The notes beneath the pieces were generated by a model that saw only the letters and a list, made by a program, of their open reading frames with translations, ran no database searches and was not told the origin of the DNA. From the NCBI GenBank assembly GCA_000165345.1, contig CM000434.1, forward strand, positions 960,001-1,024,000: a stretch of DNA of 64,000 nucleotides, read 5' to 3'. The position numbers and the translations under genes are program-made. Of the stretch, positions 1,160 to 62,743 are shown piece by piece (the stretch's first letter is position 1; every line of letters begins with the position of its first letter).

Positions 1160-1522
1160 GGATTTGGAGATTTTCAATCCTCACTATATAAGTAAAGTAA
1201 ATATTATGACAATTCAAAACTTTTAGAAAAGATCCAATTTTATATGTCTAAAAGGCCTATTATTAATAAGATGATGATACCGATTATGATTAATAATTAT
1301 TATAATATCCTTTAATATCATACATATCTTATTTATAGTGAAGATATATAATTCAGGCTATGAGAAAAAAAAGTAAAGTCAAGTAGATCTGAAAATAGAA
1401 AAATTAATAAAGTTTTATGATTATAAACTTTTTCTTTTTATTTCTTTTAAAAAAATATAAATTAGAGCGAAGATCATTGCTCCAATTTTTTAAATCTTTT
1501 GCTTTCTACTTATAAATTTCTG

Positions 1523-1718
1523 ACACGTTGGGCGCCAAGCTGCATGAAAAAAACATGCTGCCGCCTAATTAGTGTTAGTTTGTATAGTTAGGCGCCAATG
1601 GTGAAATATTATATGCTTGTAATTTTAATTTAGTTGAGGGGTTTAGAGCTGGATGAGAAGAGGGATTTGGTATATTTGGGCTGGGAAGAGAGGAAGTGTG
1701 GAATTTTTGGCGGGAAAG
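1523..1718. promoter_or_regulatory. Cluster of E2F-like sites: GGCGCCAA at 1531 and 1591, GCCGCC at 1560 and TTTTGGCGGGAAAG at 1705..1718, plus ACACGT at 1523.
   Basis: The motifs are visible in the sequence. The cluster is intergenic, upstream of the ORF at 2049. Confidence 0.45.
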
Positions 1719-2814: not shown

Positions 2815-3711
2815 CTAAATATTAAGCTTCAAAACTCCTCCTTTGCTTTGGACATTATTAACTCCAGAACCATCATCATCAAAAGTAGTTGTAATTAAAT
2901 CGACTTTTTCTTCATGTATTAAATTCATATCAACAGTATGATCATTAGCATCCCCCTCAGCATTTGCTAAACTAACCTTCTCTCCAGGTTTGAACGCTGG
3001 CATTCCCTTATAGGGACATCCAGAACATCTGAAAGCATCACCTAAGTAACAATTGCCACAACTTGAGCGAGCTGTACCTGTCTCAACTTTCTCCTGATAT
3101 ACCTTTCTTGCAGCTTCAACTCCAATTTCCTTCTCAAGATCAGCTCTTCCACAATTACAGTTGTTACAGGCTCTTTCTTTTGACTTACAACTTTCTTTTC
3201 CTTGTCCAAGAGGAACATAATTCTTGATATCTGGTACAGAACCCTCTAAGTCAATATCATCAACAAGTACTTTACCTTCTTCAGGTTTCCAACTGGGCTT
3301 TTCAGCTTTAATAACTATCTCAAAATCACTATCAGATGAATTTAATCCATCACCCTTCAATTTTTTTACCTTAATAAACCCAGAAAATAACAAATTCCTT
3401 TCAAAGGCTTTAACTTTATCAATAGAGTCTAGAGCCAATATATTCACTTTTAAAACTGATCCAAAATCCAACACCCCATAAAACTCTTTCAAAAATTCAA
3501 ATGTAAAGATTTCACCCAAAATTGATCCTGATGATAAATAAATGGATACAATTCTAAATTCTCCCTTCTTTACAATAGCTCTTAAATCAGATAAGGATGA
3601 AAACTTTCCAAATTTATCCTCTTCCTTCTTAATTCTATTCAGCTCTGACAAAAATACCTCACTCTCCTCTAATTTACTATCACTTTGATGAGTAATTATT
3701 AACTGAGTCAT
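2815..3711 (-). CDS. DRE2: Anamorsin/Dre2 (CIAPIN1-family Fe-S cluster assembly protein).
   Basis: The C-terminus carries the CIAPIN1 twin-cysteine motifs '[16 protein letters not shown]' and '[31 protein letters not shown]', which are diagnostic of anamorsin/Dre2. The gene starts at a true ATG at 3709-3711. Confidence 0.8.
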
Positions 3712-3860
3712 ACCAACAAATCCAGCAATATTTCTCTTAAAATGTTATTTTCTTCCTTTAACAATTTTATATTAATTTATTTCCTCGAAATTTACTTTGA
3801 ATTAGAAATTTTGGCGCCTTTTGACTTTTTTAAACCAATTAAAAATTTTTACATAGCATG

Positions 3861-3900
3861 ACCGGTATTGCAAGAAAAAATGTGCATGCAACACGTAATA
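3861..3900. promoter_or_regulatory. Composite upstream element 'ACCGGTATTGCAAGAAAAAATGTGCATGCAACACGTAATA', 150-190 nt upstream of the DRE2 start.
   Basis: It contains the ACCGGTATTGCAAGAAA word, which recurs at 35177, 20782 and 27811. It also contains the 18-nt TGCATGCAACACGTAATA word, which is repeated exactly at 6320..6337 upstream of NDC80. Confidence 0.5.
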
Positions 3901-3977
3901 GATGAAAAATATGATAAAACTTCTTTTTTAATAATAAATGTGGGGCAGGGTAAAGGAAGTATGTTTTGAATGAAAAT

Positions 3978-6068
3978 TTACTTTTTCCATTTTTCAACTT
4001 CAATTAACTTAGAATTATTCCTCAGTTTTACTTGATTTTTCAAATTAGAAATCGAATTAAGTGAATTTGAAAGATTTTGGATAATATACTCTTTAAGTTT
4101 AAAAATTGCCTCAGCATCTGACTGAATAACTTGTTTGCATTGAATAATTTCATTTCTAGAATGGCTTTCTTGAAGATTGCTTTGTTGTTCAAGTTGAATA
4201 ATACGACTCTTTGCCTTCTCCAACCTTTTTAGAGCTTCATCTTTGTTACGTTCAAACTCTGCCTTATAACTCTTTACTTTTTCTTGAATTTGTTCTAATT
4301 GCCTCATCTCCCTTTTGTCACAGACTGATAAATCTCCATCCAAATTTTTGATCTTTTTCTCCAAAGCATCACATGCCTGTTTCTTTTGAATTATAGTATC
4401 TTTTGTACTCTTCATTATTTCACTGAATTGTACTTCTTGAGTTTTCAGTTTTCTCTTCCACATTTCAACTTCAACAATACATCTTTTGCAACTATGTTTC
4501 ATGTTACTCCAATTCTGTCCAATGATTCCATCGACTCCTTGAGATTTATCATTGCTTCCAGAATATGAAATATTTAAAGATAAAGGTTGAAGCAAATTGA
4601 ATGAACAAACTTCATTAGTTCTTATATCATTTGAGGTAATATTTGTAATTTCTTGATATATACTATTCCAAGCTCGACTTAAATTATATAAATTAGTTGA
4701 ATGTTCCTCAATAGATAATTCAATCTCCCAGTTTTCCTTTTCAGTATTTTCTCTTTCTGTCCTTAAATTACGTATTGTTTGTCTTTTGACTTTCATATCC
4801 TGATAAACTCTTGAAACATCATCCCTTTGTATTCCTTGATTGGCAATTCTCTTTTGAAGCTTTTCAATTTCATCCTCGATATCTCTCAACTCCTTCTTTT
4901 TTATGTTCAAAATATTTTCAGTATCATTACAAGAATTTTCCATTTGTCGAATAGAATTTTGACATTGACCAACAGCATGTTCCATTTTTAACAAATCCTG
5001 AGAAAGCGTGTGATTTCTTTGGAGCAATAACTCTCCTTCCTGTAATTCGTGATTGATTTTTTGGATTTCCATATTCATCTGTTCAAGTTCATGCTTTTTC
5101 TTCTCTAAAGCCTGTTGAGCCTGGTTCTTCCTTTCTCTGCAATAAGCTTCCAAAGTCTCATTTAGTAATCCTCCATCATTCTGACCATTCAGAAATAACT
5201 TATAACTCTCACTTAACCTTCTATTCAATGTTTGAGATAACAATTTTGACGAATCTAAATTATTGTTATTTCCTTCAAAATTTGGAAAACCATTCGCAAC
5301 ATTTGAATTTGCATGCTGAAAAATATTAGACAAAGTACTTGTTAGAGATGTATCTGCCATATAACCACCAAATTCTCCATCTTTGCTATAATTCAAATGT
5401 GGGAAGACAGCTTGTTCATAATCTAATAACTCGCAGAGCCATGTCATTGCTGCAATGTGTTGTGGCCAAGTATTTGGAGCTCCAGGTGCAATAATAGTTG
5501 TTTTATTAATAGTAATAGGATATCCTATATCTTTAAAGAACCTTGGAATCTCATCATCTGGCTTAGATATTTTTATTCTTGGATCATACTGGCTTATAAT
5601 AAATTGTAAAACTTCTAAATATAATGCTCTAGTTGGACTATTTAAAGTTTTTGGATTAATCTGATTTGGATATCCTCTCTTACTCAAAAATGTTAATATT
5701 GTCTTCAATCCTTCTCTTCTGCTATCTGAAATACTTCTCCCTTTTGATGATGACGCTGCTGCTGAGCTCATATTTCCAGTCATTGAAGATGTTCCTACTG
5801 CATTTGCTCCCCTTTGAGAATTTCCACCTCTAGATGATGAATATGCCCAAGCATTACTTGTATTATTTATATTATTACTATTGCCACCTTTCATTAATAA
5901 TGATGACGTGGCAAAATGTGTAGGTGATTGAGTCTTATTTTGCCCTATAGAAAACGATGTCATTACAACATCTTGGCTATTAAGATCTCCATTCTCTGAA
6001 TTATCTCTAAACCCTGTTGTTCTTCTCATTGAATTTTGGCCAAAAGGACGAAAAGCATTACTCGACAT
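3978..6068 (-). CDS. NDC80: Kinetochore protein Ndc80/HEC1-like: basic N-terminal tail, a calponin-homology-like region and a long C-terminal coiled coil.
   Basis: Calponin-homology-like region 'PTRALYLEVLQFIISQYDP...FFKDIGYP...WPQHIAAMTWLCELL' resembles the Ndc80 CH domain. About 450 aa of heptad-rich E/K/Q/L sequence follow. The N-terminus is S/T/R-rich. Confidence 0.6.
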   Translation of the reverse strand: MSSNAFRPFGQNSMRRTTGFRDNSENGDLNSQDVVMTSFSIGQNKTQSPTHFATSSLLMKGGNSNNINNTSNAWAYSSSRGGNSQRGANAVGTSSMTGNMSSAAASSSKGRSISDSRREGLKTILTFLSKRGYPNQINPKTLNSPTRALYLEVLQFIISQYDPRIKISKPDDEIPRFFKDIGYPITINKTTIIAPGAPNTWPQHIAAMTWLCELLDYEQAVFPHLNYSKDGEFGGYMADTSLTSTLSNIFQHANSNVANGFPNFEGNNNNLDSSKLLSQTLNRRLSESYKLFLNGQNDGGLLNETLEAYCRERKNQAQQALEKKKHELEQMNMEIQKINHELQEGELLLQRNHTLSQDLLKMEHAVGQCQNSIRQMENSCNDTENILNIKKKELRDIEDEIEKLQKRIANQGIQRDDVSRVYQDMKVKRQTIRNLRTERENTEKENWEIELSIEEHSTNLYNLSRAWNSIYQEITNITSNDIRTNEVCSFNLLQPLSLNISYSGSNDKSQGVDGIIGQNWSNMKHSCKRCIVEVEMWKRKLKTQEVQFSEIMKSTKDTIIQKKQACDALEKKIKNLDGDLSVCDKREMRQLEQIQEKVKSYKAEFERNKDEALKRLEKAKSRIIQLEQQSNLQESHSRNEIIQCKQVIQSDAEAIFKLKEYIIQNLSNSLNSISNLKNQVKLRNNSKLIEVEKWKK

Positions 6069-6692
6069 TTTCTTCCCTCGCTACCAACATCAATTCCTTG
6101 CTTCTCAATCTTGTGTGTTCTTACTTGTTTTTATATCAAGAGAAGACTTACAAATCCAACAATTTATATATTATTCACTTGCTTTTGCTCAATTTAATTT
6201 CCTGCCACCTTATTCAGATTTTTCTCTTCAAATCACTGTTTTCATAAATACCCCTATAATATGTGGTTGTTTTCATTCCCGCCCAAAAATGTTGTGGGGT
6301 ATTTTCATTTATGCAAAGCTGCATGCAACACGTAATATATTTGAGTATATGACCGCCAAGCATTTGTATAAGGCACATTTGTAAAAAAAAAAAAAGTTAG
6401 AACAGATAACTCAAATAATTATGAATAATAGGGTAGACACATTTTGAATAATTACTTAAAAATATCAATACAGTATTTTACCTTTCAAAACTAAACTAGG
6501 CTTAAATTAATTAATAAAATTGAAATTCAATCCATCTGCAAGAGCATTAATTTTATTATATAATATATATTTCATTTGCATGCAAAGCAAAATAACTAAA
6601 ATTGCATACAAAATCAGGCGGGAAATTTAGTGAATTAAAATGCACACAAATGATTATTGAGCTTTAATTGGCAAAAAATTGGGATTTTTTGT

Positions 6693-9600
6693 TTACCACA
6701 AGTCTACATCAATATCCAGATCAGTAAGTGCCACATTTGTATCATCAGCTTGGTTGGAAACCTCTTGTAAGAATGCTGGAGTTTGTACTTCTCCTTCATT
6801 CGCAAACCAGCTTGCCATTTCATCAAGTTTACTGGTTTTGACAGCATTCGCCTTTGGCGCCATATTTACTGTCAATTTTTGCTTTTGTAATGTAGGTCTG
6901 GATTCTGTTGTTCCTCGTTTAGGTTGGGAAACTGATTTCTTTTCTGATAGTTTAAGCTTGACTGTGCTTGCGCTCTTTTCTCTCTTTGCGAGATTTTCTT
7001 GCTTTTGTTTTAATCTTCGTTCTTCATCCAACTTTGTTTTACGTACGAGATCTACTGATGAAATGAAATTCCATAATACACGGAAATAATCTGGCCAAAC
7101 AATTCTTTGAATCGTATTTTGCGGTTCTCCCAAGTATAGTGCCATCTTTTCTAGATTTTCTTTAACACTTTTCATAGTTGCTACTAAATCTTCAATTCTA
7201 GGCTCAGTATCGGAAACAAAGTCTGCTAGAATCTTAGCAATGGGATCCTTTTCTCCCATAGGGCCGGCTCTCTCATTACTTTTCTGAGCTGATTTCATTG
7301 TATCTGTGACCTTATTTAAAGATCCATTCAGTGATTGAATTTCACCTTCAATAGCACCTAAATCGCATTTGGCTGCTTTCTCTACTAAAGCCAATGGCTC
7401 TGCCAAAGAAAGCAATTCTGGCTTATCTCTCCAAATAATCTCTGTGATATATTGAAGCAAAGTTTTAATAGGTTTAGTACTCGAACGAACTTCACATAAC
7501 TTTGATAGTGAACTCATTCTAAAACCTTTAGCTTCTCCCTTTTCTGTATTAAGATTCAAAACATTACCAACTGAAAGAATTATAGAAAATACTTTCTTAA
7601 GCTTTGAATTTGTCTTAATTTCGTTGCAAACTGTAATAATCTCTTGTAAAGGCGTCATTAATTCATTAAAGGAATTGTCAAACGAAAGAATAAACAGCTG
7701 AGCGTTCAAACGAGCGCCAAACATTGGAATACCAATCATTGCAGCTATAAATTGTTCAGGCTTATCCAACTGAGTCAAGTCACCTCCTGCATCAATATAC
7801 TCTTTTACGATTGCAAACTCTTCTGGAGTTGGGGTCATTAAAATCAAAGCTTCTGTAGCTTCTGTATCCAAAATCTTCTTATCAAGATCCAATATAGCAT
7901 CACGCAATTGTTGGAATGTATATGCACTGAACTTTGATAATGCAATACTTATATTGTATGCTCTCTTTGAGTCTGGTAAAATTTGCATGACCTTTGGCTT
8001 CTTTGTCGCCTCTGTCGCCTTCTTTGGTTTTGCTGATTCGATACCAAATACTTCCTCCAAATTTCCGAAATCCAACTTGATTGGTTCTTTAATATCCCAA
8101 ATTGTACCTTGAATATTCTCAACCTTATCCCAATGTAACTTCTTTGTCTTCGATTCTGGACCACTTGGCTTACTTCCTGTCTTTCCTCCAAATTTCCCTG
8201 CCTTTCCTTTTGGGGGTCCTTTTCCTGTTGGGGGTCCTTTCCCACCTGGTGGTCCTTTTCCCCCTGGAGGACCCTTTCCTCCTGGAGGTCCTTTCCCTTT
8301 CCCTGGTGGGCCCTTTCCTTTTGCTGGCGGCGTGCCCTTTGCCGGTGGCGCGCCCTTTGCCGGTGGCGCGCCCTTTGCTTCTGCTGGTTCTGCCTTTGGT
8401 TCTGTAGGAGCACCTTCTTTTGCTTGCGGTGGCGGAGATTTGTTAATAATGTTGTCCATTTTCCCAATACCATCCAGCAATCCAGATAATGCCTTTCCTG
8501 ACTTTACACCTGCTCCTACAATACCTGTGTATACCCCTCCATCCGAAGGTTTGTATTGAATCATTGAGCTAATAAGGGCGCCAACTCCGCTACCTTTAAG
8601 AAGTTCTATCACACCCTGTGAATCAGGAGAAGGAAGTCCCCATTTTGCTGATGCTGTAAGAGCAATTCTAGTTGAAGCGCATACAAATGGCTCAAGATCG
8701 ATCACATAAGGCAACTTTGTTACTACGTTACCCCCATCATCTAAAAATGAAATGCATGCAAGTCTTTCATTACCAGATTCTTCTACATCAGGTTTTGCTC
8801 CTTTAATCTTTGCTAAAATATCATCTGGAGGAAGTTGTTGATCGATACCTACTATCTGAGTCTGAGTTACTTTAACTTGTTTAGCCTCCTCCTTATCTTT
8901 ATTTCTTTGTCTAACTAAAGGAATCAATGCATTTGGAATCCATATTGATTCTTTGAAATAAGCCTTCATTTCTTCCTTACCTGCATAATCTACTAATGGC
9001 AAATAAAATGGTAAACCTGTACTCTCATCTTTTTCTATTTGAGTTAACAACTTCCCTTCTGGAGTTATACAAGGTTCTGGAATCTCCCATTTCTCCAAAA
9101 CTGTCTGAGCTTCTTCATTTATCATCATTGTCACTGACTGCTCTCCCATAACTGGGAATCCTCTTGTTAACTTTGGAATGTTTATTATAGGTAACTTCTT
9201 TCTTTCTGTCTTACTAAATGGAGGAAGAGAAAGCATTGTAGAAACTCCTAGATAGTCTGGACCTGTAATTCTTACTTTCAAGTGAGGTAAAATTGCTGTT
9301 GAACTCACTGTCATACTCTGAAATGACTCTCCATGTAGTGCTCTGATTCTTGAAGTGCATAAAAGTTGTTGAGTTTGGTTATTTGAAAATGGGGTACTTC
9401 TATTTAACCCTCTCAAATTCTTTGGATCAAATAAAAAAGTCTCCAATTGTCGATACCTTAATTGATCAATACTTGGACAAATTGGACTTGCTAATAATGG
9501 TGATTCCTCATACATTATTCTTGTTAATTTACTTGATTTTCCTAAGGTATCGGTAATTATTTCTTTTAAAGATCTCTCTGCTCTTGATTCTAGTGATTCT

Positions 9601-11609
9601 CTTGCATCAATACACTTGTTCTGAAGCTCATGAGCTATATAAGAGTCTGTACAACTGCTTACATTCTCTGTTAAGTATACTTGGGTATCTGCATCTAATA
9701 AAGTTATCAATTCTAATACATATCTTGTATCAGGATGATCAAATCCTAAGTTCTCTCTTCTATATTTATAAACCTCATTATAAAGCTCTAAAGCATATCT
9801 AAAGTTTCCAGCCTGGTGAAAAATACATCCCAAAGCTAGTATATTGTCTTGTACTAATGGAAACTCTCTGTTATTGTAGATCCTCATTAACATATCTAAA
9901 GCTACCATTATATGTTGTACTCCTTGTCTACAATCTCCAAGTAATCGATAAACTAATCCCAAATTTGAATAGCAATCAGCTACACGAGGATGAGGTGGAT
10001 TCTTATTATGATCTCCCAGAACCTGTTTTCTGATTTCCAGACAATTATGTAACATTTCCTTACATTTTTCAAAATTCTTTATTCTGAAATAGTAACTTGC
10101 TGCTGTAGAGTATGCATCACTCATAACTAAGTCTCCTGAACCATAAACTTCATTTACTAATGAAAGATATTTTTCAAGGTAAAATGCTGATGATGTATGA
10201 TCTCTATACATACTACATAGATCAGAGACTGTTAGTACCAGACTACATAATACTGAAGAATCACATGAAACTGATGGTCCTACAGCTGTAACATTTTGAG
10301 TTGAACCTCCAGATCCTGATAAATTTGAGATATTGCTAATATGAGAAGAATCATTTTTTGCATTTTTATTCTCAGAATTGCGATCTGCAACAGCTAAGAT
10401 GGTATTTTCCACAAGAAATCGAAGCTCTTTAAGATATTGTTCTCCTTTACGTAATTCTCCTGTTAAACCACAACATTTAGCAATAATGATTAATTCTACA
10501 ACCATTATACCTTCTAATGGGTGTCCAAGGTACTTGGATAGAAAAGCTCGAGATATTTCATAACAATGTAAAGCATTCAGCATGGCATCTGAGTATTGAG
10601 CTTTCAAAAACTTCTCTAAAGCTGAGCTTCTTAGTCTTTGAATGATTCTTTGAATTTCATGTATTTCTCCATCTCCACGTGATTCTTCAAGACGTTGTAA
10701 AAGAAGAAGGGAATCTGTCATAATTTCAAACTTCTCATTAACAATTTGAGGTCTGGCTTTTGTTGTTTGTCCAAATAAGAGATTATTCTTTTCAGAAGTT
10801 GTTAGTGTAAAGTGTCTACTTGCAAACTCTTCTTTAAATGTTTGACTTAAAGCTGCTAGTGAGTGTTCAGCAGCTTCTGTTAATGCTGGATCCAATACAC
10901 TTACGTGTAGATTAAACATATCATCTTCTCTTTGAGAAATTCGAGCATTTCTTCCTTCTTTTTTTTTCAAGTTACTTTTTCCAGGAGCTTTATCTTGGAA
11001 AAGTAGACGTTTAATAGGGCCAACATCAAAAGGAAGAGTTGATTCAACAAAGGTACTTCTATTACTTAATTCTGAGTAACGTCCATCTTTAGAGAGATTG
11101 TTCTTCAATAGTTTAGATTCACCATTAATAGTGGTTGCAGTAGAAGATGCTCCTGTTGAGCTGGAAGGTAGACTACTAGCTTTGGAATCTTTACTTATAC
11201 TTTTCAGAACAGTTTTTGCTGAGGCTGGCTTTGATGGTACGCTTACTGGAGGAGCGTGACCATTGGATACTGGTGTATCATTTAAAGGTTCTGATGAATT
11301 TTTAGGTATTGGGGCCTTTGGGGCTGGTTTTAATGCAGTAGGAGGTCCTTTTGAGACCTTTGGACCAGGAGGAGAGGGTGATGGAGAAGCTGACTTTGGT
11401 GGAGGTGGTGTTGATGGTTTTGGTGGAGGTGGGGATGATGGTTTTGGTGGAGGAGATTCTGAAAGGTTTGGAGAAGGAGTTGAAGATAATTTTGAAGGTG
11501 GTGGAATTTTCGTTGCTGGTTTCCCTCCAAGTGGTTTAGCAGGGGGAGGCGGTTTTTTTCCACCAGGAGGAGAAAGAGGAGCCTTGCCTGGCACACCCAA
11601 TTTTTTCAT
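6693..11609 (-). CDS. Formin (FH1-FH2) with a proline-rich N-terminus and TPR-like repeats before the FH1 region.
   Basis: FH1 region of (GKGPPGG)n and (AKGAPP)n repeats, followed by an FH2 signature ('KKLHWDKV...IWD', 'GIPMFGARLNAQLF', 'LNLNTEKGEAKGFRMSSL'). N-terminal TPR-like units include 'YSNLGLVYRLLGD'. The N-terminus has a 'PPPPKPSTPPPPK' stretch. Starts at a true ATG at 11607-11609. Confidence 0.8.
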   Translation of the reverse strand: MKKLGVPGKAPLSPPGGKKPPPPAKPLGGKPATKIPPPSKLSSTPSPNLSESPPPKPSSPPPPKPSTPPPPKSASPSPSPPGPKVSKGPPTALKPAPKAPIPKNSSEPLNDTPVSNGHAPPVSVPSKPASAKTVLKSISKDSKASSLPSSSTGASSTATTINGESKLLKNNLSKDGRYSELSNRSTFVESTLPFDVGPIKRLLFQDKAPGKSNLKKKEGRNARISQREDDMFNLHVSVLDPALTEAAEHSLAALSQTFKEEFASRHFTLTTSEKNNLLFGQTTKARPQIVNEKFEIMTDSLLLLQRLEESRGDGEIHEIQRIIQRLRSSALEKFLKAQYSDAMLNALHCYEISRAFLSKYLGHPLEGIMVVELIIIAKCCGLTGELRKGEQYLKELRFLVENTILAVADRNSENKNAKNDSSHISNISNLSGSGGSTQNVTAVGPSVSCDSSVLCSLVLTVSDLCSMYRDHTSSAFYLEKYLSLVNEVYGSGDLVMSDAYSTAASYYFRIKNFEKCKEMLHNCLEIRKQVLGDHNKNPPHPRVADCYSNLGLVYRLLGDCRQGVQHIMVALDMLMRIYNNREFPLVQDNILALGCIFHQAGNFRYALELYNEVYKYRRENLGFDHPDTRYVLELITLLDADTQVYLTENVSSCTDSYIAHELQNKCIDARESLESRAERSLKEIITDTLGKSSKLTRIMYEESPLLASPICPSIDQLRYRQLETFLFDPKNLRGLNRSTPFSNNQTQQLLCTSRIRALHGESFQSMTVSSTAILPHLKVRITGPDYLGVSTMLSLPPFSKTERKKLPIINIPKLTRGFPVMGEQSVTMMINEEAQTVLEKWEIPEPCITPEGKLLTQIEKDESTGLPFYLPLVDYAGKEEMKAYFKESIWIPNALIPLVRQRNKDKEEAKQVKVTQTQIVGIDQQLPPDDILAKIKGAKPDVEESGNERLACISFLDDGGNVVTKLPYVIDLEPFVCASTRIALTASAKWGLPSPDSQGVIELLKGSGVGALISSMIQYKPSDGGVYTGIVGAGVKSGKALSGLLDGIGKMDNIINKSPPPQAKEGAPTEPKAEPAEAKGAPPAKGAPPAKGTPPAKGKGPPGKGKGPPGGKGPPGGKGPPGGKGPPTGKGPPKGKAGKFGGKTGSKPSGPESKTKKLHWDKVENIQGTIWDIKEPIKLDFGNLEEVFGIESAKPKKATEATKKPKVMQILPDSKRAYNISIALSKFSAYTFQQLRDAILDLDKKILDTEATEALILMTPTPEEFAIVKEYIDAGGDLTQLDKPEQFIAAMIGIPMFGARLNAQLFILSFDNSFNELMTPLQEIITVCNEIKTNSKLKKVFSIILSVGNVLNLNTEKGEAKGFRMSSLSKLCEVRSSTKPIKTLLQYITEIIWRDKPELLSLAEPLALVEKAAKCDLGAIEGEIQSLNGSLNKVTDTMKSAQKSNERAGPMGEKDPIAKILADFVSDTEPRIEDLVATMKSVKENLEKMALYLGEPQNTIQRIVWPDYFRVLWNFISSVDLVRKTKLDEERRLKQKQENLAKREKSASTVKLKLSEKKSVSQPKRGTTESRPTLQKQKLTVNMAPKANAVKTSKLDEMASWFANEGEVQTPAFLQEVSNQADDTNVALTDLDIDVDLW
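8190..8400 (-). repeat. Coding tandem repeats (15-21 nt units, GGCGCGCCCTTTGCC-like) that encode the formin FH1 poly-proline tract.
   Basis: Several direct repeats of 'ggtggcgcgccctttgcc' and 'ggtcctttcc' units are visible in the sequence. On the minus strand they translate to GKGPPGG/AKGAPP. Confidence 0.7.
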
Positions 11610-12286
11610 AGTTGAATAATTTTTTTCTGTTTAAATATTAGTTAATTTAGACCTATTTGAGTATAACTCTTTAATTCTTTTCATTTATTGATTCTTTTTT
11701 TTTTTGACTCAGAGTTTTCCCAATCTAGAAAAGGGTCTAGATTGACATTTTCTTTCAATATTGAAGAAAAAAGCGTTATTCTTTGTAATTTGTTAGTTTT
11801 TTAATTTAGGGAATCTTAAAAATATCCACAAGAAATTTAAAAATAAAGAAAAAAAGAAAATGCACCCCTATCTCTGTGGTTTTTATAATTTTAAAATTTG
11901 TTGGGTATTTCCAGAAAATTTTCACCAGAGTTAGGGGTACTAATATATCTACATGCACACAAAGATATTATTGGTGTATTTTGGGAAAAAAAACAACAAA
12001 TATTTTTTTTGACAAGTTTTAGTGTTTGTTTTACTTTGAATTTTTACTATTGTATGTTCTTATTATCTTCTTTGTTAATTTCTATATCTTATAATTTTTT
12101 TTTTTGTAATTCAAAAACACATTTTAATTTATTTACAAATATGACGTGTGTGCATGGTAAGAAATTTATTGGGAATATTAATTTTTAAATTAATATGTTA
12201 AATGGAAAATATATTTAAAGAGAAATGAGAATAAAAGTAAAAAATTAATACATTTTTTTTTTAGATAAAAATATGAAATAGGATAA

Positions 12287-13312
12287 TTATCTAACAAGTT
12301 CCTTTAAAAAATGTTCGTAGTTAAATCCTCCATCATTAGATGGGAAATCCCTAATTAAAAAAAATAGTAAAAATGTTAAAAGCAGGTTGGGGGAGGCTGT
12401 TTGCATGCATTTACTTGCATGGCAAATTATCACTATACCGGCGTACATGCAAGATGTACAAATAGGCGGCATATGGCACGTATTGAAATATATGAACTTA
12501 CTTTAAAAGTATTTCAATTTCTTTATTGGTTAAAACTTCTCCTGTATTAGTTAATAGAGAAGTCAGCTGCTGGCTAGTGATTGATCCAGAGTTCTGTAAT
12601 ATTGGAAGAAATTGATGAATTAGAAATAATATTATAAATAGAAAATGGAGAAGTGGCACAAAGTATATTGAACTTACATTTGAGTCATACGATCTGAAAA
12701 ATTGAACTAGATTTTCAAAAGTGTCTTCTGGATGTACAATAGAATCACAAAATTTTACAAAAGCTTGTAAATCACATGTTTGACCAACACTTGCGACAAA
12801 TCTCTGGACTTCGCTTTCAGATGGCGCTAATCCCTAAAATTAGGAATAAAAGTGATGTTTAATTAATAATAAAAATGGAGTGGAAAACTGACCATTCTTC
12901 TAACAATTTCTCCAATTTTATTGGTTTGAATGGTTGGACCTCCTCCCTATAGTTTAAAAGAGAATAATGGTATTAAAAGATGATATTAAAGATTGCTTGG
13001 GATTAGGAGTTGGGGTTAATATGGCGGAGTAATGCATTTATTTCTCCATTTTACATATCCCAAGGATGACTTGGTAAAAGCTTAACTTACAGCAGCATCT
13101 CTGAATGAAAATTCAATTCTCTCTTTGGACTATAAATATGAAAAAAGAATTAATTTATTTGCAAAAAAAAAAAAAATTAAGTAATGATAATTAATAGTTA
13201 GTCATTTCTATGAGATTCAAGTTTCTTCCCTAGTTTCTCAAAATTCACTAAAGGAAGAAAAAATGGATGGAGCGTAACAATCAAAAGAACTTACAATCTT
13301 GAAAGGTGGCAT
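12287..13312 (-). CDS. Six-exon EF-hand (calmodulin / myosin-light-chain-like) gene of 140 aa. Exons in plus coordinates, 5' to 3' of the gene: 13312..13295, 13129..13091, 12946..12893, 12833..12678, 12593..12502, 12350..12287 (stop TAA at 12289..12287).
   Basis: Conceptual splicing gives 'MPPFKI|SKERIEFSFRDAA|GGGPTIQTNKIGEIVRRM|GLAPSESEVQRFVASVGQTCDLQAFVKFCDSIVHPEDTFENLVQFFRSYDSN|NSGSITSQQLTSLLTNTGEVLTNKEIEILL-K|DFPSNDGGFNYEHFLKELVR*'. This aligns along its length with calmodulin EF-hand pairs (for example FSFRD..GGGPTI..IGEIVRRMG versus [25 protein letters not shown]). Every exon is bounded by GTAAGT-type (or GTCAGT) donors and YAG acceptors, the phases are compatible, and stops flank each exon in frame. 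The track's ORF at 12287..12472 is the last exon plus readthrough of the intron. Confidence 0.7.
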
Positions 13313-13479
13313 CTAAATAACTGTATATAATTATTTTGCTTGCGATCTTCACACAAAATTGATAATCTATAAATTGTCTTTTTTTTTTAACTAAAATAAT
13401 TTGCTCTTGAATTTTTTCCCTCTTTATTTTTCATGCGCTTTTTTCTCTGTATAATAAAATCTTTATTTTATTTATTTCA

Positions 13480-13560
13480 AATATGCCGCCTTTTATTTCA
13501 CGACCAAATGGCAAAGCAGATAAAGGCGGGACTTTAGGGCGGGCAAATGTGCATGTTGAA
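13480..13560. promoter_or_regulatory. Bidirectional promoter core between the two head-to-head EF-hand genes, containing E2F-like GGCGGG motifs.
   Basis: 'atatgccgcc', 'aaaggcgggac' and 'agggcgggcaaatgtgcatg' lie between divergent ATGs at 13312 (minus) and 13878 (plus). Confidence 0.5.
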
Positions 13561-13877
13561 TCTTGTAATGTAAATTTTTCGATACCTTCGAAGTTAAAGA
13601 TTTAATAAAAATAAAAAAATTGTGAGGAATTTCAAAAAAAGAAAATTAAGCAAGAGTTAGAATTTAAATTGTTAAGATAAGAAGAATTTGTGACTGTAAT
13701 TGTTAAATATTGAGATACTGAACCTTTTATTTCTGAGAATTATTAAAGTGTAAGTGTGAGTTAATTTAGGGGACATTGATCAAAGAAAAAAAAGTATTGG
13801 CAAAACTGTTGTAATTGGGTTATTTAAATTTATTCATTTTTTTCTAAAAAAGGAGATTTAAAGTAAGAAAAGTAGAA

Positions 13878-14966: not shown

Positions 14967-15264
14967 CTTGGAATATTTTAGCATTTTTTTCTTCATAAAT
15001 CTAAAACCTACTTATCCCTTTTTCAAAATCAATATAATCCAATTTTCCATTTTCCCCTTTTCTTACTTATAATTAAATTCTGCATGCATGCAATTAATAT
15101 TTTTTTTTAAAATTTGTGCAAATATTAACATATACCGGAGATTAGGCGCCAACTTATTTAATTTTTCTAATTAAATTTCTTGAATATTCAAAGAATATTG
15201 GGGTTTGAAAGTAAAAAATTAAGTTATCTAAGAACAAATAGTAATTATTTGTTCTAGATATAAA

Positions 15265-19159: not shown

Positions 19160-19593
19160 GACGAGTATATAAAAATGTCTCAATTATAGATGATTAAGAT
19201 TAATTAATATTGAATGAGAGAAAGGTTGGTTGTTAAATAATAAAAAAAAGGTGAATAAAAAATAAAAAGACGAGACAACATAAATAATAAATAAAGGAAA
19301 TAATAGAAATTAATTAGGGTATATATATAGTGATTAAAAGAAGTGTATAGAGAACAAATAATTAAAGAATACACAAATAAATATAAATATAAATAAAAAA
19401 TAAGTTGATATTTATATAGGGTAAGGAATAAGTACTAAATAACATTTGAAATAGGAAATATATAGAAAATAAATTATACGTGTCGATTTTCGACTAAATT
19501 ACGAAACGTAAAATTTAAGGGAAAAAATAGCAATAGATCATCCAAAGTATTAATTATTATTTCTTTTAATTGATATTATTTGGAAGAGAAACA

Positions 19594-20262: not shown

Positions 20263-22062
20263 GCAGTAGGGAGGTGATTGAATGAAGGAAATATATATTT
20301 ACTTTGTGGATTATTGGCAGCTGTTATCTTTATAACTCGCCATATGTCCCATTGTTAAGATATTTATTATTTTCAACATTTATTTCATTAATATCCAAGC
20401 ATAGAAGTAATATTAATAATTCTTATTACAATGTTTATAACAGTTTTTTGTTTTATTTCATTTCCGTGCCTTTTTTTGTTAGTTTCACAAGTGGGAGAAA
20501 ATGTATTTTAACTTAAATAATGTAATGGGTAAAAAATTTTTGGTTTTGTTATTCTATTTATCAAGAACAAACAAATCTCTTATTTTTCCCTCCATTGCTA
20601 ATAATATTTCCTTTGGGGGAAAATTCTCTAAAATTTTGATCCAAATGAATCTCCAATAGCACTGATATGACTGTCAATACTAGAAATTTGTGCAAAAATC
20701 TCATTCAAATATGCATGCTTAGATTTTTTGTTGACACGTGTGGCGGTAAAAGCATGCAAATTTGTAAATACGTGTTTTGCAGATTCGCCGTACCGGTATT
20801 GCCAGTGTGAATTTTAACCACATAAACATGAATATGTGCATGCACAATTAAATTAGTTGTGAGGAACTAATGCTAAATTTTTACAAACAATTAAAATAAT
20901 TAAAAATTTTAGAATTTGAAATTCAATAGTTTTACCTTCAATCTCAAGAAGGAATATGCAATATATATATATGCATGTAAATATATATTAAAATAAACAA
21001 GAATCAATGAAATGACAAACTTAATTCAAATTTTCATTTATTCAATAAGCTATTATTTAATGAAAAATTGCAATTTTTAAGTCATTTATGTTCAGAAAAA
21101 TTAGGCGCCAATGCATTCCTTCATAATATTTCCTATTCCACCCCCCACATTACATTTGTTTTACTTGTAATGCTATTTGTGCAAGAAGTATAAAGCATAT
21201 ACAATTTTTGGAAATAAGTCAAAATTAAGAAAGGAATAAAATTTGGGATTTGAATTATTCAAAACTTTAAGAGCACGATTTGTGAACAATTTGGTATTCA
21301 AAAAGAAAAAAAAACAAGTAAACTTCAGAATATAGGTCACCCAGAGACAAAAAATATAGTTCTATTATTTTCATTAATATAAAAAAGCGACATACCAAAA
21401 TATAAATGGAGTTTATATTATTATTATTATTGTTATCGGGTCTCAAATAAAAAAATAAACTTTACTTCAAAATCTAATTTTGTATTAATATTTAATTTAT
21501 TTGTATTGGCTATAAACTGATCCAAGCAATAATCTCAGGAAGATATAAATAAATACCAATTAATACAGAAGGCAATAATAATAATAATAATTTTTAACTT
21601 TCTAATAGTTTATTCATACTTTTACACGCAAATTTATATTTTCAGATTCTGGAATTATTGCAAGTTTTTCTGTCGCAGAATTTGGCGGGCATAATTTCAA
21701 GATAATTCTTATGGTTGATCATAATTAAAAATATTTTTTCATTTTTGCCAACAAATTTGTTGGCTGAAGAAATAATAAAAGATAAACATTAAATTAATCT
21801 AAAGGAAAAATTGGAATTACGAAGTTTTTTTTTCTAGGGTGGAATTAAGCTATAATTATTAAGAAGATCTAAAACACACAAAACATAAGATAATTAGAGA
21901 TCTGAATGAATAAGTTCTCATTTATATTTGCTCATATATAATATATCTTAATAAAAGATTATAATATATGAACATTGTTATATTTACACACATTTATCAC
22001 ATAAATTGCAAATTTCCCAAGTATTTTAATATCTTTGGGAATTCTACTTATAACTTACTTTC

Positions 22063-27541: not shown

Positions 27542-28137
27542 ATAATTTTAACTTCAATTTATCTTCTCAAGTGGGTTTTTTTCTTTCTCTAAAGAGAGAA
27601 AACCAACTCTCCAATTTTCTTCCCTCTAGAATGTTAGTTTTCCAATTGGATTCGTAAAAATTTCTAAAATTTCTACAATTTATCAAAGTTATTCTTTTTC
27701 AGACAAAAATTGTAATTATTTGTCTTTCGTTATATTATTAATTAATTCTGCTAATTTTTGCTTACCCACATGTGCATGTGTTCATTTGGGCGCCAACGAC
27801 ATTTTGTTAATACCGGTATTGAAATTTGTAATAATACTGCTTCTTTTTGCCCCCCATTTCCTAGAAGCTTTCAAATGAGGGGCGCACACGCAATAAAAAT
27901 GGTTGGTTGGTTGTTGGGGGGCAGACTGACAATTTAGCAAGGCATCATCTAATAAGGCAAATTACACGTTGGAAGTGAATTTTGTGATTTGTAATTAATA
28001 ATAAATTTTTTCAAAAATAAGAAAAAACAAGGGAGATGCTGTTTTAATTGCAAAGAAAAGGTCAATTTATGCTAGATTAAAATAATTGAGTGTGTGCATG
28101 TTGGAAGAGAAGTTAATTAGGATTGTTACACCTACAT

Positions 28138-31296: not shown

Positions 31297-33548
31297 TATA
31301 AGATCATTTGGTTTTGATTTGAAATTTTTTAATTGCTTGGAAGAAAACGCATTAATAAAGTCAGCAAAAATTTGAGACTTATACACAATTATTTCAATCA
31401 TAATCAATTGACATATCATTTATTCGGTCAATTTTATTGATTAATGCACGTTATAATCATTGTCATTACTTTGGATTTCTAGAATTGTCAGGGCCTATGC
31501 CGAAAAAACCACTATTATGGCGGGTAGTTAATAATTGGTGAATTATTTCCCTTTGTGCCACATTGATATTTAGGCGGTAAAGTGACAATTTATATTTTAA
31601 ATCTCGTTTTTATTGTAATTAATCGAGGGATTTTAAATGACAGATTTTCTATTACTATTGTAATTGATTATATTAACTACCTTATAATTTAGGTATTTAG
31701 TTTAGGCATTCGGATTTGAATGCTTTTTTTATGCTATATTCGCCGTTAAAGTGTGGCTGTGCAAGTATTTTCTGAGTATTGTTTAGAACTTAGACTTAGG
31801 TTGCGTGTTTAGTGTAGATTATTATCATTCTTAATGGGGGGTAATTTTAATTTACAGTCTAGTAAAAGCTTCGTTTTAGAGTCAAATTCAATATTATTGA
31901 AATTGTACATTATACTTGAAACCAAGATAGTTGATTTGCAAATTTATTCTCTACTACCGAATATTCCACTATTAGTTTTAGACCCACTAATATAGACGTT
32001 GGTTTTGAATTAAATAACTTAGATTTATTGAAATTGAGGAGAATATTTCCGATTAAGCATTATATTATTTTTATGATAAATTTGTTTCTAAGAGTGAAAA
32101 GATATGTATGTTATTAAATAATAATAAACCCTTAAAATAAGAATTATAATCGTAATTGCATCAATATATATTGCAATAATAAAAGTGTAAGACTAATTTT
32201 TAATTATTAGCTTACCAGTACTTTTTAATCAAGGCTGTTTATTTTATTTGATTTTTTTTTTTTTTTTTTTTAAGTTTAAATCACTCATTGCATTCCACCA
32301 GACTTAGATGAAGGTAGAATAGGAGACAATTTGTAATAAAGAAAATATTAATGTATTTATTTTTATATGTTCAAGAAACCTTTATTAGTTTGGTTTTAGT
32401 TAATGTTTAAGCCATTGAGATTTTGCTAATTGTGTAATTACTTTTTCAAAAAAAAAGTGAAATAGTATAAAAGCATATGAATGGGAGAATGAATAAAAAG
32501 TTTCTTGATATAACTTTTAAAGTAAAACTTCATTAAAATAGTTGAACAAAAGATTAACACAAGTATAAAAGATAAAATTTGGGTGAATAATTAGAAGATT
32601 TTATTTTTGCAGAAAAAAAAAGATGAATGATTTACTATTAATTTTTGCTTAAGCAATAAAATTCAATTATAAGAAGGAAGATCTACTAAAATTTTTGAAT
32701 ATATTCTTAATATTTATGCAGTCCATTATTAAGAAAATCAAATATGAAACATTAATTTTTAAATTTTGATTTAGTTTGAAATGAAACTTGATGTTAATTT
32801 CTTTCAGAAATAAAATTTAAAAGCTTCTCATAAGAGTATCTTTGAAGAAGTATTTTCATTTTTATTAAGTAGCATCTGGAAAATAAGAAATTCTCATTTT
32901 TTTTTTGTATATATCATACATTTTAAAACTTAATTTTTCTATTTTCTCATTTTACCGCCATAATCAGAAATACATGTTATTCCTTTTTTCTATTAAAAAA
33001 TTGGTTTCTTGCTAGTAATTCTTTTTTAATAGTTTTATACTCCTTTTCATTAAAGATTAAGTTTTAAATTATTTCTAAATCAGTAAATTTTTTTTTCTTT
33101 GTTCTCATTTCTTTCAGAATTATACTAATTTGTTAGTATTTGACAACTCAAACAGGCGGGCTGCCTTGCATGCATTTAATTTGTATTGAGTTTTTTTGCA
33201 TCTGATTTTTTCCCCACATTGTACACGTAAGCGATTTCAATTACGTGTTTTTGCGGTAATTAAAATAATAACTATATGCCGGCATTTACATGCCAAATAA
33301 TTTTAAAAAGAAGTGTAGGATTGCATGTGGATGCATGCGAGTAGAATTAGCTGGTGAATAACAAGGAGAGTGCATTAATTAATTTTTGATATGAAAACTT
33401 AGAAGGTGGAAGAAGAGATAAAGTTGAATATATTAATTTTTAGATAGGGTATAAATGTATATTTATATATATTTATATTTTTAATTGACAGTAATGTTTT
33501 AGAGTTGAGCAGATAAGAATCCCATATTATTGCTAAAAGGTGTAATAA

Positions 33549-39988: not shown

Positions 39989-40457
39989 ATTTCCTATTAA
40001 AAATCATACTCTTATTTAAATAAGAAGTATTAATTTCTTATTTTGACTTCCAAATTTAGTTATCTTAAAAGCTATTTTTTGACTATTCAACTTTCTAGTC
40101 TTATTAATTCTTCTATTTACGTTTTTCCTTAGTTTCTTAACTTTTTACAATATTATTTTTGTAGACACTATTTTTTAAAATTATGACATGATTTAGACTT
40201 TTTATAGCCAAAAACTTCTCAATCCCACATCTAACATGGAAATCTTTTTAATTCTATTATTATTTGATATGGCATTTCCCGCCAAATCCGCTTGGCGCCA
40301 TACGTGTCAAAATATTGATAACGGTACCTATGGTTAAATAGGAAGTTAATAATAAATCAAAATATAATTTTTTTTTTCAGTGGATAATTTAGAAAAGGAA
40401 AAATTAGGAGAGTTAAAGAAATTATAGAAAAGATTGTGAATTAAATAATGAGACCTC

Positions 40458-62423: not shown

Positions 62424-62743
62424 TCAAAAAGATCCACTTGATAATTTTAAGTACGAAATTTCCTGTTTTAAAATAAATTATTACTATTATTATTATTATT
62501 ATTACTTTCTACTAAAAAAAGAATCTAAAAGACTAAGGATGTGTATTAAAGCTAGAAATGCATGCATGCATGCAATTATAACGGTATCGATTAAACCAGC
62601 TTAAGAATTTTCTTTTCTTGAGGGTGAAAAAAAAAAATTCACTCCTAGATTATCTCATTTTCTGTTGTATTCCTTTCTTAGAGTGTTACAAAAGTCCTGA
62701 ATATACTAAACTTAGTAAACATGTAATTAAAAAAATCAATAAT

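Follow-up and report, generated by a model that had tools for sequence, protein, structure and literature searches.

The promoters of two consecutive genes on C. parvum chromosome 6, DRE2 and NDC80, share an identical 18-mer, TGCATGCAACACGTAATA, which probably represents a composite promoter element, namely, an AP2_1 palindrome abutting an ACGT-core element, and not a repeat. In such an element, two candidate transcription-factor sites would stand side by side without a spacer, TGCATGCA followed by (A/T)TACGTGT(T/C), and each of the NDC80 and DRE2 promoters would hold a near-consensus pair, with an E2F-type site ~75-120 nt downstream of it. The window, i.e., the whole 64-kb stretch of DNA analysed, contains two exact copies of the 18-mer on the plus strand (3883-3900 and 6320-6337), both in the same orientation, and a third copy was not found in it even when up to 3 mismatches were allowed. 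An earlier note on this DNA had placed the copies about 175 and about 250 nt upstream of the respective start codons, and its positions and orientation were confirmed, the exact distances being 172 nt for copy 1, which also stands 78 nt beyond the NDC80 stop codon, and 252 nt for copy 2. The gene calls of the note agree with the Pfam matches (CIAPIN1 and Ndc80_HEC), and NDC80 is taken to be cgd6_4140 because the annotated neighbours are cgd6_4150 (formin) and cgd6_4140 ("coiled coil protein"). Rfam and tRNA scans of the window returned nothing, and a literature search found no paper mentioning cgd6_4130 or cgd6_4140. The coordinates of all features are presented in Table 1.

Table 1 Genes, shared 18-mer copies and putative regulatory elements in the C. 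parvum window
Feature	Position	Strand	Remarks
DRE2/anamorsin gene (CIAPIN1), presumably cgd6_4130	2815-3711	-	Pfam PF05093, E=3.8e-19
NDC80 gene (Ndc80_HEC), cgd6_4140	3978-6068	-	Pfam PF03801, E=3.3e-25
18-mer copy 1, DRE2 promoter	3883-3900	-	Exact match; TATTACGTGTTGCATGCA read in gene orientation
AP2_1 palindrome TGCATGCA, copy 1	3883-3890	.	Known ApiAP2 motif (PMC3734150, PMC4117751)
ACGT-core element TTACGTGT, copy 1	3891-3898	-	ATTACGT invariant, 6 species
18-mer copy 2, NDC80 promoter	6320-6337	-	Exact match; 252 nt 5' of NDC80 ATG
AP2_1 palindrome TGCATGCA, copy 2	6320-6327	.	At most 1 change across 7 to 9 aligned species
ACGT-core element TTACGTGT, copy 2	6328-6335	-	TATTACGTGT intact in 4 species
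E2F-type site TTTGGCGCC, DRE2 promoter	3810-3818	.	GCGCC kept in 5/6 species; fits published motif 3, DTTGSCGCCH
Conserved AATACCGGT box, DRE2 promoter	3861-3869	-	TACCGG invariant, 6 species; word over-represented in intergenic DNA
E2F-type site TTTGGGCGGGAA (gene orientation), NDC80 promoter	6276-6287	-	GGCGGG invariant, 7 species; fits published motif 4, TTTGGCGGGAAV
Cryptosporidium "G-box" CCCCACA (gene orientation), NDC80 promoter	6293-6299	-	Kept in all aligned species; fits published motif 2, DTGTGGGG
E2F + ACGT composite GGCGCCCAACGTGTCA, upstream of 157-aa gene	1521-1536	-	C. canis has TGGCGCCATACGTGGCA; ACGT lost in chipmunk genotype I
ACGT element TTATACGTGTCGATTTTCGACT	19474-19497	+	92 nt 5' of RPL10 ORF
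Motif cluster GACACGTGTGGCGGTAAAAGCATGC ... ATACGTGTT ... TACCGGTATTGCC	20731-20804	+	Kept in C. parvum and C. ubiquitum, partly in C. canis
Inverted pair ACACGTAA-N12-TTACGTGT, upstream of Mo25 gene	33223-33248	.	Site turnover
E2F + ACGT composite GGCGCCATACGTGTCA	40294-40309	+	156 nt 5' of gene at 40458

The first question is whether a shared word of this length could be accidental. The view that an 18-nt match is beyond chance in 64 kb proved overstated: a high-complexity dispersed exact 18-mer repeat, on either strand, is present in 23-37% of Markov-simulated 64-kb windows, and the real window also contains chance repeats of 16, 16 and 17 nt. Since an 18-mer repeat alone is unremarkable in this all-versus-all simulation, a conditional flank test and comparative evidence were used. 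The 12 TGCATGCA loci of the window provide 24 flanks, among which the probability that two share at least 10 nt is P = 0.0035; the runner-up pair shares 4 nt. The 18-mer match is unlikely to be due to chance, yet it is far less extreme than first claimed.

The comparative evidence comes from orthologous promoters, in which up to seven Cryptosporidium species have both sites at corresponding positions. Those with the sites at both promoters, and with independent substitutions in them, are C. meleagridis, chipmunk genotype I, C. ubiquitum, C. canis and a further species (L011). Invariant positions number 13 of 18 for copy 1 (6 species, versus a 17% background) and 9 of 18 for copy 2 (7 species), the background for both copies being 17-19%. 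At DRE2, the heptamer ATTACGT is unchanged in C. parvum and all five of these relatives. At NDC80, where copy 2 forms the 5' edge of a conserved block of ~100 nt, TGCATGCA differs by at most one base in all 7 to 9 aligned species, including C. ryanae and C. andersoni, while TATTACGTGT is intact in C. parvum, C. meleagridis, chipmunk genotype I and C. ubiquitum and degraded in C. canis, L011 and C. felis. In these last three, the ACGT half is lost while TGCATGCA stays, and it is therefore dispensable at NDC80 in some lineages. These alignments support the interpretation of both halves as phylogenetic footprints, and in our reading, they settle the question of the 18-mer versus chance. A coincidence would require two ordinary AP2_1 sites with identical 10-nt flanks and an ACGT part that is functionless alone, which is made easier by the simulated frequencies, by the other chance 16- and 17-mers and by the first 1-2 flank bases (TGCATGCAA/C), which are part of the usual extended AP2_1 consensus. 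This possibility, already disfavoured, is quite improbable in view of the conditional P value, the invariance of ATTACGT at DRE2, its retention at NDC80 in chipmunk genotype I and C. ubiquitum although TGCATGCA is substituted there, and the independent over-representation, base specificity and conservation of ACACGT elsewhere.

Another way to obtain two identical words is to copy one from the other. The earlier note named membership in a dispersed repeat as what would refute its proposal, and nothing of the kind was observed: there are only two copies in the 64-kb window, not the many copies of a mobile element with similarity extending past a short word; identity ends at exactly 18 nt; the surrounding sequences are unrelated; and the sites are syntenic in other species. 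A repeat family or a duplication was rejected on the absence of extended similarity around the copies. A smaller event, namely, a short duplication from one promoter to the other, or gene conversion between them, in the lineage of C. parvum, would be compatible with copies in one orientation 2437 nt apart and with a weak second colinear match (ACAAATCCAGCAAT at 3716 and ACAAATCCAACAAT at 6150, 13/14, spacing 2434 nt), but the latter is conserved in no other species and was treated as chance. The abrupt end of the identity also argues against such an event, as does the finding that both sites are already orthologous in species as distant as C. canis, where the sites of the two promoters differ by 1-5 bases; the sole lineage-specific change, T versus A at DRE2, affects the first base, where C. 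ubiquitum likewise has T. We therefore assign very little probability to copying. Under the composite-element reading, the words would owe their identity to selection that keeps both halves and not to copying.

The AP2_1 half is readily recognized. Both copies contain the palindromic core [T/C]GCATGC[A/G] as TGCATGCA, and words of this type are strongly enriched in the intergenic DNA of the window (CATGCA, 40 observed versus 3.9 expected; GCATGC, 15 versus 0.9), with 9 of the 12 TGCATGCA loci being intergenic. In protein-binding arrays with isolated domains, the ApiAP2 domains of cgd2_3490, cgd1_3520, cgd8_3230 and cgd5_4250 bind TGCATGCA (PMC4117751), and the AP2_1 motif of this type in Apicomplexa is also bound by the ApiAP2 domain of P. 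falciparum PF14_0633. The correspondence is close, with an identical 8-bp palindrome that is upstream or intergenic, over-represented and conserved across species, but of the 18 bases, AP2_1 explains no more than 8, or 10 at most, and the remaining conserved bases lie outside the published AP2_1 logos that were accessible.

These remaining bases belong to a recurring word, and the suggestion that ACACGT is a recurring core is borne out by its specific over-representation in intergenic DNA. The positions previously listed for it are correct to within 2 nt (20734 instead of 20735; 27964 instead of 27966), but the list was incomplete: the window has 21 ACACGT/ACGTGT sites, of which 12 are intergenic. 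Enrichment was assessed against Markov expectations within intergenic DNA, which replaced an intergenic-versus-coding Fisher test swamped by A/T-rich words. In 14.7 kb of intergenic DNA, the 12 observed sites compare with 0.9 (order-1) or 4.1 (order-3) expected; ACACGT ranks 9th (order-1) or 8th (order-3) among 2080 hexamers, directly after the AP2_1 and E2F words, and forms the third most over-represented hexamer family, whereas words that differ from it by one base show no enrichment. Of 11 intergenic ACGT loci, 6 have a word of the E2F or AP2_1 type no more than 10 nt away, versus a 5.6% background; both the enrichment and the adjacency tests were devised after the data were seen and cover ~64 kb of C. 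parvum sequence together with ~90 kb from other species. In C. parvum, with coding sequence taking up 77% of the window, intergenic to coding counts are 12:9; at the loci of the other species, they are 6:1, 5:0, 5:2, 4:0 and 3:0, and the element is almost wholly intergenic in these five.

The 11 C. parvum loci and about 20 loci of the other species yield the consensus wTACGTGTy, an ACGT core with defined half-sites on its flanks. Most sites are of the hybrid TTAC|GTGT form, a perfect palindrome (ACACGTGT) occurs only at 20734-20741, and the elements are found in either orientation relative to genes, including in divergent promoters. Outside DRE2 and NDC80, ACGTGT sites appear either as footprints or as cases of turnover between species. 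TTATACGTGTCGATTTTCGACT is kept, within diverged flanks, in C. parvum, C. ubiquitum and, with a single T/C change, C. canis; of the Mo25 pair, the first copy is retained in chipmunk genotype I and C. canis and the second in C. ubiquitum; and the composites at 40294-40309(+) and 1521-1536(-) are nearly identical (18/20). By its enrichment, its intergenic location, its conservation or turnover and its neighbours, the element behaves like a separate cis-element. It also lies 5' of RPL10, Mo25 and further genes with no relation to these, and it is therefore not confined to genes of the cell cycle. Zero-spacing ACGTGT+TGCATGCA was found nowhere in the compared sequence beyond the two orthologous positions, and the fixed side-by-side arrangement may not be a general rule.

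In part, this element has been seen before. The FIRE motif CACGTA/TACGTG, which shares its core word and organism, was reported upstream of expression clusters 39, 42, 45 and 83, of which 39 and 42 are also AP2_1-enriched (Oberstaller et al. 2013, PMC3734150 Table S3). It was weak (Z = 6, robustness 6/10), filed undiscussed as "Motif 2, G-box-like DTGTGGGG" (PMC3734150), and its conservation and juxtaposition were left unexamined. CACGTA/TACGTG is missing from the motif table of a 2025 review (PMC12246861); no ACGTG/CACGT motif text was found in PMC3734150, PMC4117751, PMC1779779, PMC2832001 or that review; literature matches for ApiAP2 together with ACGTG were PCR primers; and a motif analysis of sporozoite ATAC-seq data reported only E2F and poly-T motifs (PMC11761812). 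The ACGT-core element TTACGTGT is conserved and apparently not described before. Calling it G-box-like, as was done earlier, is misleading, since papers on Cryptosporidium use the name G-box for G.GGGG, and the plant-type CACGTG occurs at only 1 of the 11 intergenic loci. The 18-mer has no G-run of the Cryptosporidium/Plasmodium type (GxGGGG), and a separate CCCCACA box lies 21 nt from the NDC80 copy.

Plant ACGT elements comprise the G-box CACGTG, the ABRE ACGTGT/GC and the Z-box ATACGTGT and are bound by bZIP (HY5) and bHLH factors. Binding of HY5, a bZIP protein, to ACGT elements, including the Z-box, is documented (PMC4055456). The C. parvum element resembles them in its ACGT core, of whose half-sites one (ACGTGT) is strongly favoured, in three instances (19478, 20770 and 40302) that read exactly ATACGTGT, in the single palindrome ACACGTGT and in its proximity to other sites, as plant elements commonly act in combination with adjoining ones. 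The organism is different, however, most C. parvum copies are the A/G hybrid TTACGTGT, and the likeness is one of sequence.

What, then, might read the shared word? The proposal of a composite cis-element is supported with respect to its ApiAP2-type TGCATGCA and ACGT core, present in both promoters. The ACGT element is a putative protein-binding site, and our best guess, on account of its ACGT core, the single perfect palindrome and the way in which it combines A-box and G-box halves, is a dimeric bZIP-type factor, the alternative being an uncharacterised AP2 domain. bHLH factors, which had been named as candidates, are unlikely, because the C. parvum transcription-factor table (PMC3734150, Table 2) lists bZIP proteins (3 CCAAT-binding and 1 other) but none of the bHLH class. 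The ACGT-binding factor and an ApiAP2 would bind jointly, either cooperatively or competitively, and set promoter output. A single factor with extended or bipartite specificity, such as a multi-AP2-domain ApiAP2, could instead read the 16-mer TTACGTGTTGCATGCA, or a CACACA-type AP2 and not a bZIP could occupy the ACGT half. The zero spacing of the halves, kept at both promoters in 4-6 species, fits this possibility; a number of C. parvum ApiAP2s are multidomain proteins, and CACACA-like words are recognized by four of the domains (PMC4117751); and TACGTG was grouped with GTGTG-type motifs by Oberstaller et al. (PMC3734150). We nevertheless consider it unlikely: at most other loci, the ACGT element stands alone or beside E2F sites; in C. 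ubiquitum, the DRE2 site has lost 1 nt between the halves; and in C. andersoni, the two elements are apart and inverted. Moreover, this intergenic DNA shows no comparable enrichment of ACACAT or CACACA, on which ground an AP2_2 variant was rejected as the identity of the ACGT half.

The position of copy 1, only 78 nt beyond the NDC80 stop codon, also allows an RNA-level signal acting in the NDC80 3'UTR or NDC80-DRE2 polycistron spacer and in the NDC80 leader, and polycistronic transcripts of C. parvum have E2F-rich spacers (PMC11761812). Such a signal is very improbable, as both halves are palindromic or dyad-type DNA motifs and other instances occur in either orientation and in divergent promoters; the accessible part of the literature searched gave no evidence for an NDC80-DRE2 polycistron. 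For the composite element itself, a relation to E2F/DP-driven promoters is suggested by the conserved E2F-type sites downstream of it in both promoters and by E2F-like words directly adjoining the ACGT element at 1523, 20736 and 40302, although the 18-mer itself contains no E2F site. Conserved E2F sites in both promoters are what would be expected of a co-regulated S-phase or mitotic pair, the possibility raised in the earlier note; however, no C. parvum motif is commoner than E2F, which stands 5' of a very large fraction of genes and is therefore too widespread to single out NDC80 and DRE2. In the accessible part of one expression clustering, NDC80 (cgd6_4140) falls into FCM cluster 24 with weak membership (0.54), and DRE2 (cgd6_4130) is neither in that cluster nor elsewhere in this part of the table.

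Little is understood of how Cryptosporidium regulates its genes: the 2025 review lists only about six motif families, very few with a validated factor (PMC12246861). The ACGT-core element is a candidate site for a non-AP2 factor, and NDC80, DRE2, RPL10 and Mo25 offer short, well-defined promoter modules. The general picture of eukaryotic promoters is unchanged, and the filing of TACGTG in the published motif catalogue is corrected. More tentatively, and with somewhat less than even confidence, we suggest that (T)TACGTGT could rank with E2F and AP2_1 as a third major promoter element, conserved across the genus, in intestinal Cryptosporidium species, overlooked through its lumping with the G-box, read by a non-AP2 factor (e.g., the orphan bZIP) and acting mainly when tight against E2F/DP or ApiAP2 sites. 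If true, promoter control would gain a combinatorial layer in a parasite whose regulatory vocabulary has been regarded as very small.

The window belongs to Cryptosporidium parvum chromosome 6. As the earlier note had reported, an exact 18-nt word, TGCATGCAACACGTAATA (TATTACGTGTTGCATGCA when read in gene orientation), lies upstream of both DRE2 and NDC80. Its distances from the respective ATGs are 172 and 252 nt, and the copy at DRE2 follows the NDC80 stop codon by 78 nt. No third copy was found in the window with up to 3 mismatches allowed. The flanks of the two copies are unrelated, and the identity is limited to exactly 18 nt. Pfam searches identified DRE2, NDC80 and a formin as three successive minus-strand genes, and exactly the same NDC80 protein sequence is found on BX526834.1 and in other C. 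parvum assemblies. In the published annotation, cgd6_4150 is the formin and cgd6_4140 a 'coiled coil protein'; therefore, NDC80 is cgd6_4140, and DRE2 is presumably cgd6_4130.

Table. Features of the window and species variants of the word upstream of DRE2
Feature	Position	Strand	Remarks
CIAPIN1/DRE2 gene	2815-3711	-	Pfam
Ndc80_HEC (NDC80) gene	3978-6068	-	Pfam
FH2 formin gene	6693-11609	-	Pfam
18-mer, DRE2	3883-3900		exact
18-mer, NDC80	6320-6337		exact
E2F-type site, DRE2	3810-3818		conserved
E2F-type site, NDC80	6276-6287		conserved
DRE2-upstream word, C. parvum			tATTACGTGTTGCATGCA
DRE2-upstream word, C. meleagridis			aATTACGTGTTGCATGCA
DRE2-upstream word, chipmunk genotype I			aATTACGTaTTGCATGCA
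DRE2-upstream word, C. ubiquitum			tATTACGTG-TaCATGCA
DRE2-upstream word, C. canis			aATTACGTGTTGCATGCA
DRE2-upstream word, L011			aATTACGTGgTGCATGtA
TTATACGTGTCGATTTTCGACT	19474-19497		92 nt upstream of the RPL10 ORF; kept in C. parvum and C. ubiquitum, and in C. canis with one T/C change; flanks diverged
Cluster GACACGTGTGGCGGTAAAAGCATGC ... ATACGTGTT ... TACCGGTATTGCC	20731-20804		conserved in C. ubiquitum, largely in C. canis
Inverted ACGT pair upstream of Mo25	33223 and 33243		first copy kept in chipmunk genotype I and C. canis, second in C. ubiquitum
GCTTGGCGCCnnACGTGTCA	1523	-	
GCTTGGCGCCnnACGTGTCA	40302	+	
ACACGTGTGGCGG	20734		
ACAAATCCAGCAAT	3716-3739		
ACAAATCCAACAAT	6150-6173		
Tandem AP2_1, TGCATGCATGCA	15081-15092		intergenic
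Tandem AP2_1, TGCATGCATGCATGCA	62559-62574		intergenic
(CA)ATACCGG(T) box	3861-3869, 20791-20798, 27811-27818, 12436, 15133, 53883, 1748		
ORF-free stretches	11610-13877, 20263-22062, 31297-33548		1.8-2.3 kb each

One question is whether the match could be a coincidence. The claim that an 18-nt match is beyond chance in 64 kb proved overstated: an exact 18-mer was repeated at dispersed positions (either strand, low-complexity words excluded) in 23%, 23% and 37% of sequences simulated with Markov models of order 1, 3 and 5, respectively, and the real window (31% G+C) also contains unrelated exact repeats of 16, 16 and 17 nt. A fairer test is conditioned on the loci of the AP2_1 palindrome TGCATGCA, the trait that makes the 18-mer of interest. 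The 12 loci in the window provide 24 flanks, and the probability that any two of these share at least 10 bases is 0.0035; the next-best pair has only 4 bases in common. Several of the tests were framed only after the sequences had been seen. Chance is unlikely, and the deciding evidence is comparative.

The syntenic formin-NDC80-DRE2 locus was compared in eight other species (C. meleagridis, Cryptosporidium sp. chipmunk genotype I, C. ubiquitum, C. canis, a further Cryptosporidium species represented by locus L011 from a sequencing run, C. felis, C. ryanae and C. andersoni), in all of which gene order and orientation are identical. In the DRE2 promoter, aligned for C. parvum and the first five of these, ATTACGT is unchanged in all six species, and 13 of the 18 positions of the 18-mer are invariant versus 17% across the intergenic region as a whole (hypergeometric P = 1e-7). 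At NDC80, the 18-mer lies at the 5' edge of a conserved promoter block of ~100 nt that also holds TTTGCAT, CCCCACA and the E2F site TTTGGGCGGGAA. Here, no species, C. andersoni included, shows more than a single change in TGCATGCA; C. parvum, C. meleagridis, chipmunk genotype I and C. ubiquitum retain an intact TATTACGTGT, and the ACGT half is degraded in C. canis (TACTGAGTTT), L011 (TATTGTGTGT) and C. felis. In chipmunk genotype I and C. ubiquitum, the AP2 palindrome has a substitution and the ACGT part is unaltered.

The conserved orthologous positions and the independent changes of the halves show that both sites are old and evolve independently. A copying event as the source of the 18-nt identity was rejected for these reasons and because the DRE2 and NDC80 sites are 1-5 bases apart within each other species; the identity in C. 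parvum reflects two near-consensus copies of one element pair. CACGTAA lies a few bases downstream of TGCATGTA in the C. andersoni NDC80 promoter and likewise upstream of NDC80 in C. ryanae. Chipmunk genotype I and C. ubiquitum carry a second ACGTGT in their DRE2 promoters, 21-30 nt further upstream; it is deleted in C. parvum and C. meleagridis.

Several additional features of these promoters were observed. Upstream of the composite, the DRE2 promoter holds a further conserved block, (T)TACGTGTAATTT..ATGTGGACA, in chipmunk genotype I (locus L008, 5160-5205), C. ubiquitum (L019, 4785-4840) and C. canis (L009, 5225-5275); this block was lost in C. parvum and C. meleagridis via a ~35-nt deletion. 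An out-of-frame ATG in GGAATTGATGTTGG precedes the NDC80 ATG by 26 nt (~6090-6100 in the window); it is kept in C. parvum, C. meleagridis, chipmunk genotype I and C. ubiquitum (there AATTAATGTTGG) and may be a uORF of the NDC80 leader. A second colinear similarity between the promoters (ACAAATCCAGCAAT and ACAAATCCAACAAT, spaced by 2434 versus 2437 for the 18-mers) is probably due to chance, because the other species do not share it.

The ACGT half appears, from its distribution, to be a cis-element in its own right, one not previously recognised as such. In the 14.7 kb of window intergenic DNA, ACACGT/ACGTGT was observed 12 times versus 0.9 (order-1 Markov) or 4.1 (order-3) expected, ranking 9th and 8th, respectively, among 2080 hexamers, just behind AP2_1 (CATGCA, GCATGC) and E2F (GCGCCA, CCCGCC, GGCGCC) words. 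The enrichment is base-specific, as the one-base variants ACACAT, ACACGA, ACACGG, ACACGC, GCACGT, TCACGT and CCACGT showed none in the same DNA; TACGTGT occurred 7 times versus 0.3 expected. Coding sequence makes up 77% of the window, yet 12 of the 21 sites are intergenic, and the intergenic:coding counts in the loci of other species were 6:1 and 5:0 (C. ubiquitum), 5:2 (C. canis), 4:0 (chipmunk genotype I) and 3:0 (C. meleagridis). The consensus across all sites is (A/T)TACGTGT(T/C).

Orthologous intergenic regions were also aligned using 16-23 kb around the kinesin-5 gene from C. ubiquitum, C. canis and chipmunk genotype I. The element also occurs upstream of RPL10, Mo25, in the RabGAP/kinesin-5 divergent promoter and elsewhere, and the Mo25 pair shows classic site turnover. 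In TTATACGTGTCGATTTTCGACT, the inverted repeat GTCGA-TTT-TCGAC immediately follows the element. An E2F-like or AP2_1 word lies within 10 nt at 6 of 11 intergenic ACGTGT loci versus 5.6% of intergenic positions in a post hoc test, and GCTTGGCGCCnnACGTGTCA and ACACGTGTGGCGG occur in addition to both 18-mers. Within the ~150 kb examined, no zero-spacing ACGTGT+TGCATGCA turned up outside the two orthologous promoter positions; therefore, juxtaposition with AP2_1 may be particular to DRE2 and NDC80, while juxtaposition with some partner site is common.

In GCTTGGCGCCnnACGTGTCA, an E2F site and the ACGT element are fused; 1521-1540 (-) and 40290-40309 (+), upstream of unrelated genes, are identical at 18 of 20 bases, and the C. 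canis orthologue of the former (TGGCGCCATACGTGGCAAAAT) closely resembles the latter in C. parvum. The AP2_1 palindrome forms tandem runs in two intergenic regions. Intergenic DNA is enriched in the (CA)ATACCGG(T) box, with 10 copies of TACCGG/CCGGTA where 0.9 would be expected; the box is not one of the 25 motifs published for C. parvum. At the DRE2 promoter, six species share an unchanged TACCGG, which is also conserved at 20791. Three stretches with no ORF of at least 100 aa and no Rfam or tRNA match are gene-free also in syntenic C. ubiquitum, carry conserved motif clusters and could represent long UTRs or non-coding transcripts missing from the annotation; in C. canis, a 423-aa gene is called in the third.

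Over-representation of TGCATGCA and E2F words was first noted on this same chromosome 6, and four C. parvum AP2 domains bind AP2_1 in vitro (PMC3734150, PMC4117751, PMC12246861). The ACGT-core motif is absent from the 25 published motifs and from the motif table of a 2025 review. Table S3 of Oberstaller et al. 2013 (PMC3734150) lists a FIRE motif, CACGTA/TACGTG, for the upstream regions of clusters 39, 42, 45 and 83, with Z = 6 and a robustness of 6/10, and places it under 'Motif 2, G-box-like'; clusters 39 and 42 are AP2_1-enriched as well, consistent with the composite at DRE2 and NDC80. The closest elements by sequence are plant ACGT-containing elements, including the Z-box ATACGTGT bound by the bZIP HY5 (PMC4055456), and the C. 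parvum transcription-factor table contains bZIP proteins and no bHLH entry (PMC3734150). We infer a bZIP protein as the preferred candidate factor.

The earlier note had further proposed S-phase or mitotic co-regulation. NDC80 has weak membership (0.54) in expression cluster 24, and DRE2 is outside that cluster. E2F-type sites are conserved in both promoters, but E2F motifs stand upstream of a very large proportion of genes in C. parvum, and the ACGT element also precedes RPL10, Mo25 and other genes. A specific S/M-phase regulon is not supported; the data support a shared promoter grammar. The reading of the 18-mer as a composite cis-element held, with its halves conserved at orthologous promoters: it appears to be a composite promoter element that is genuine and conserved, with one well-known half.
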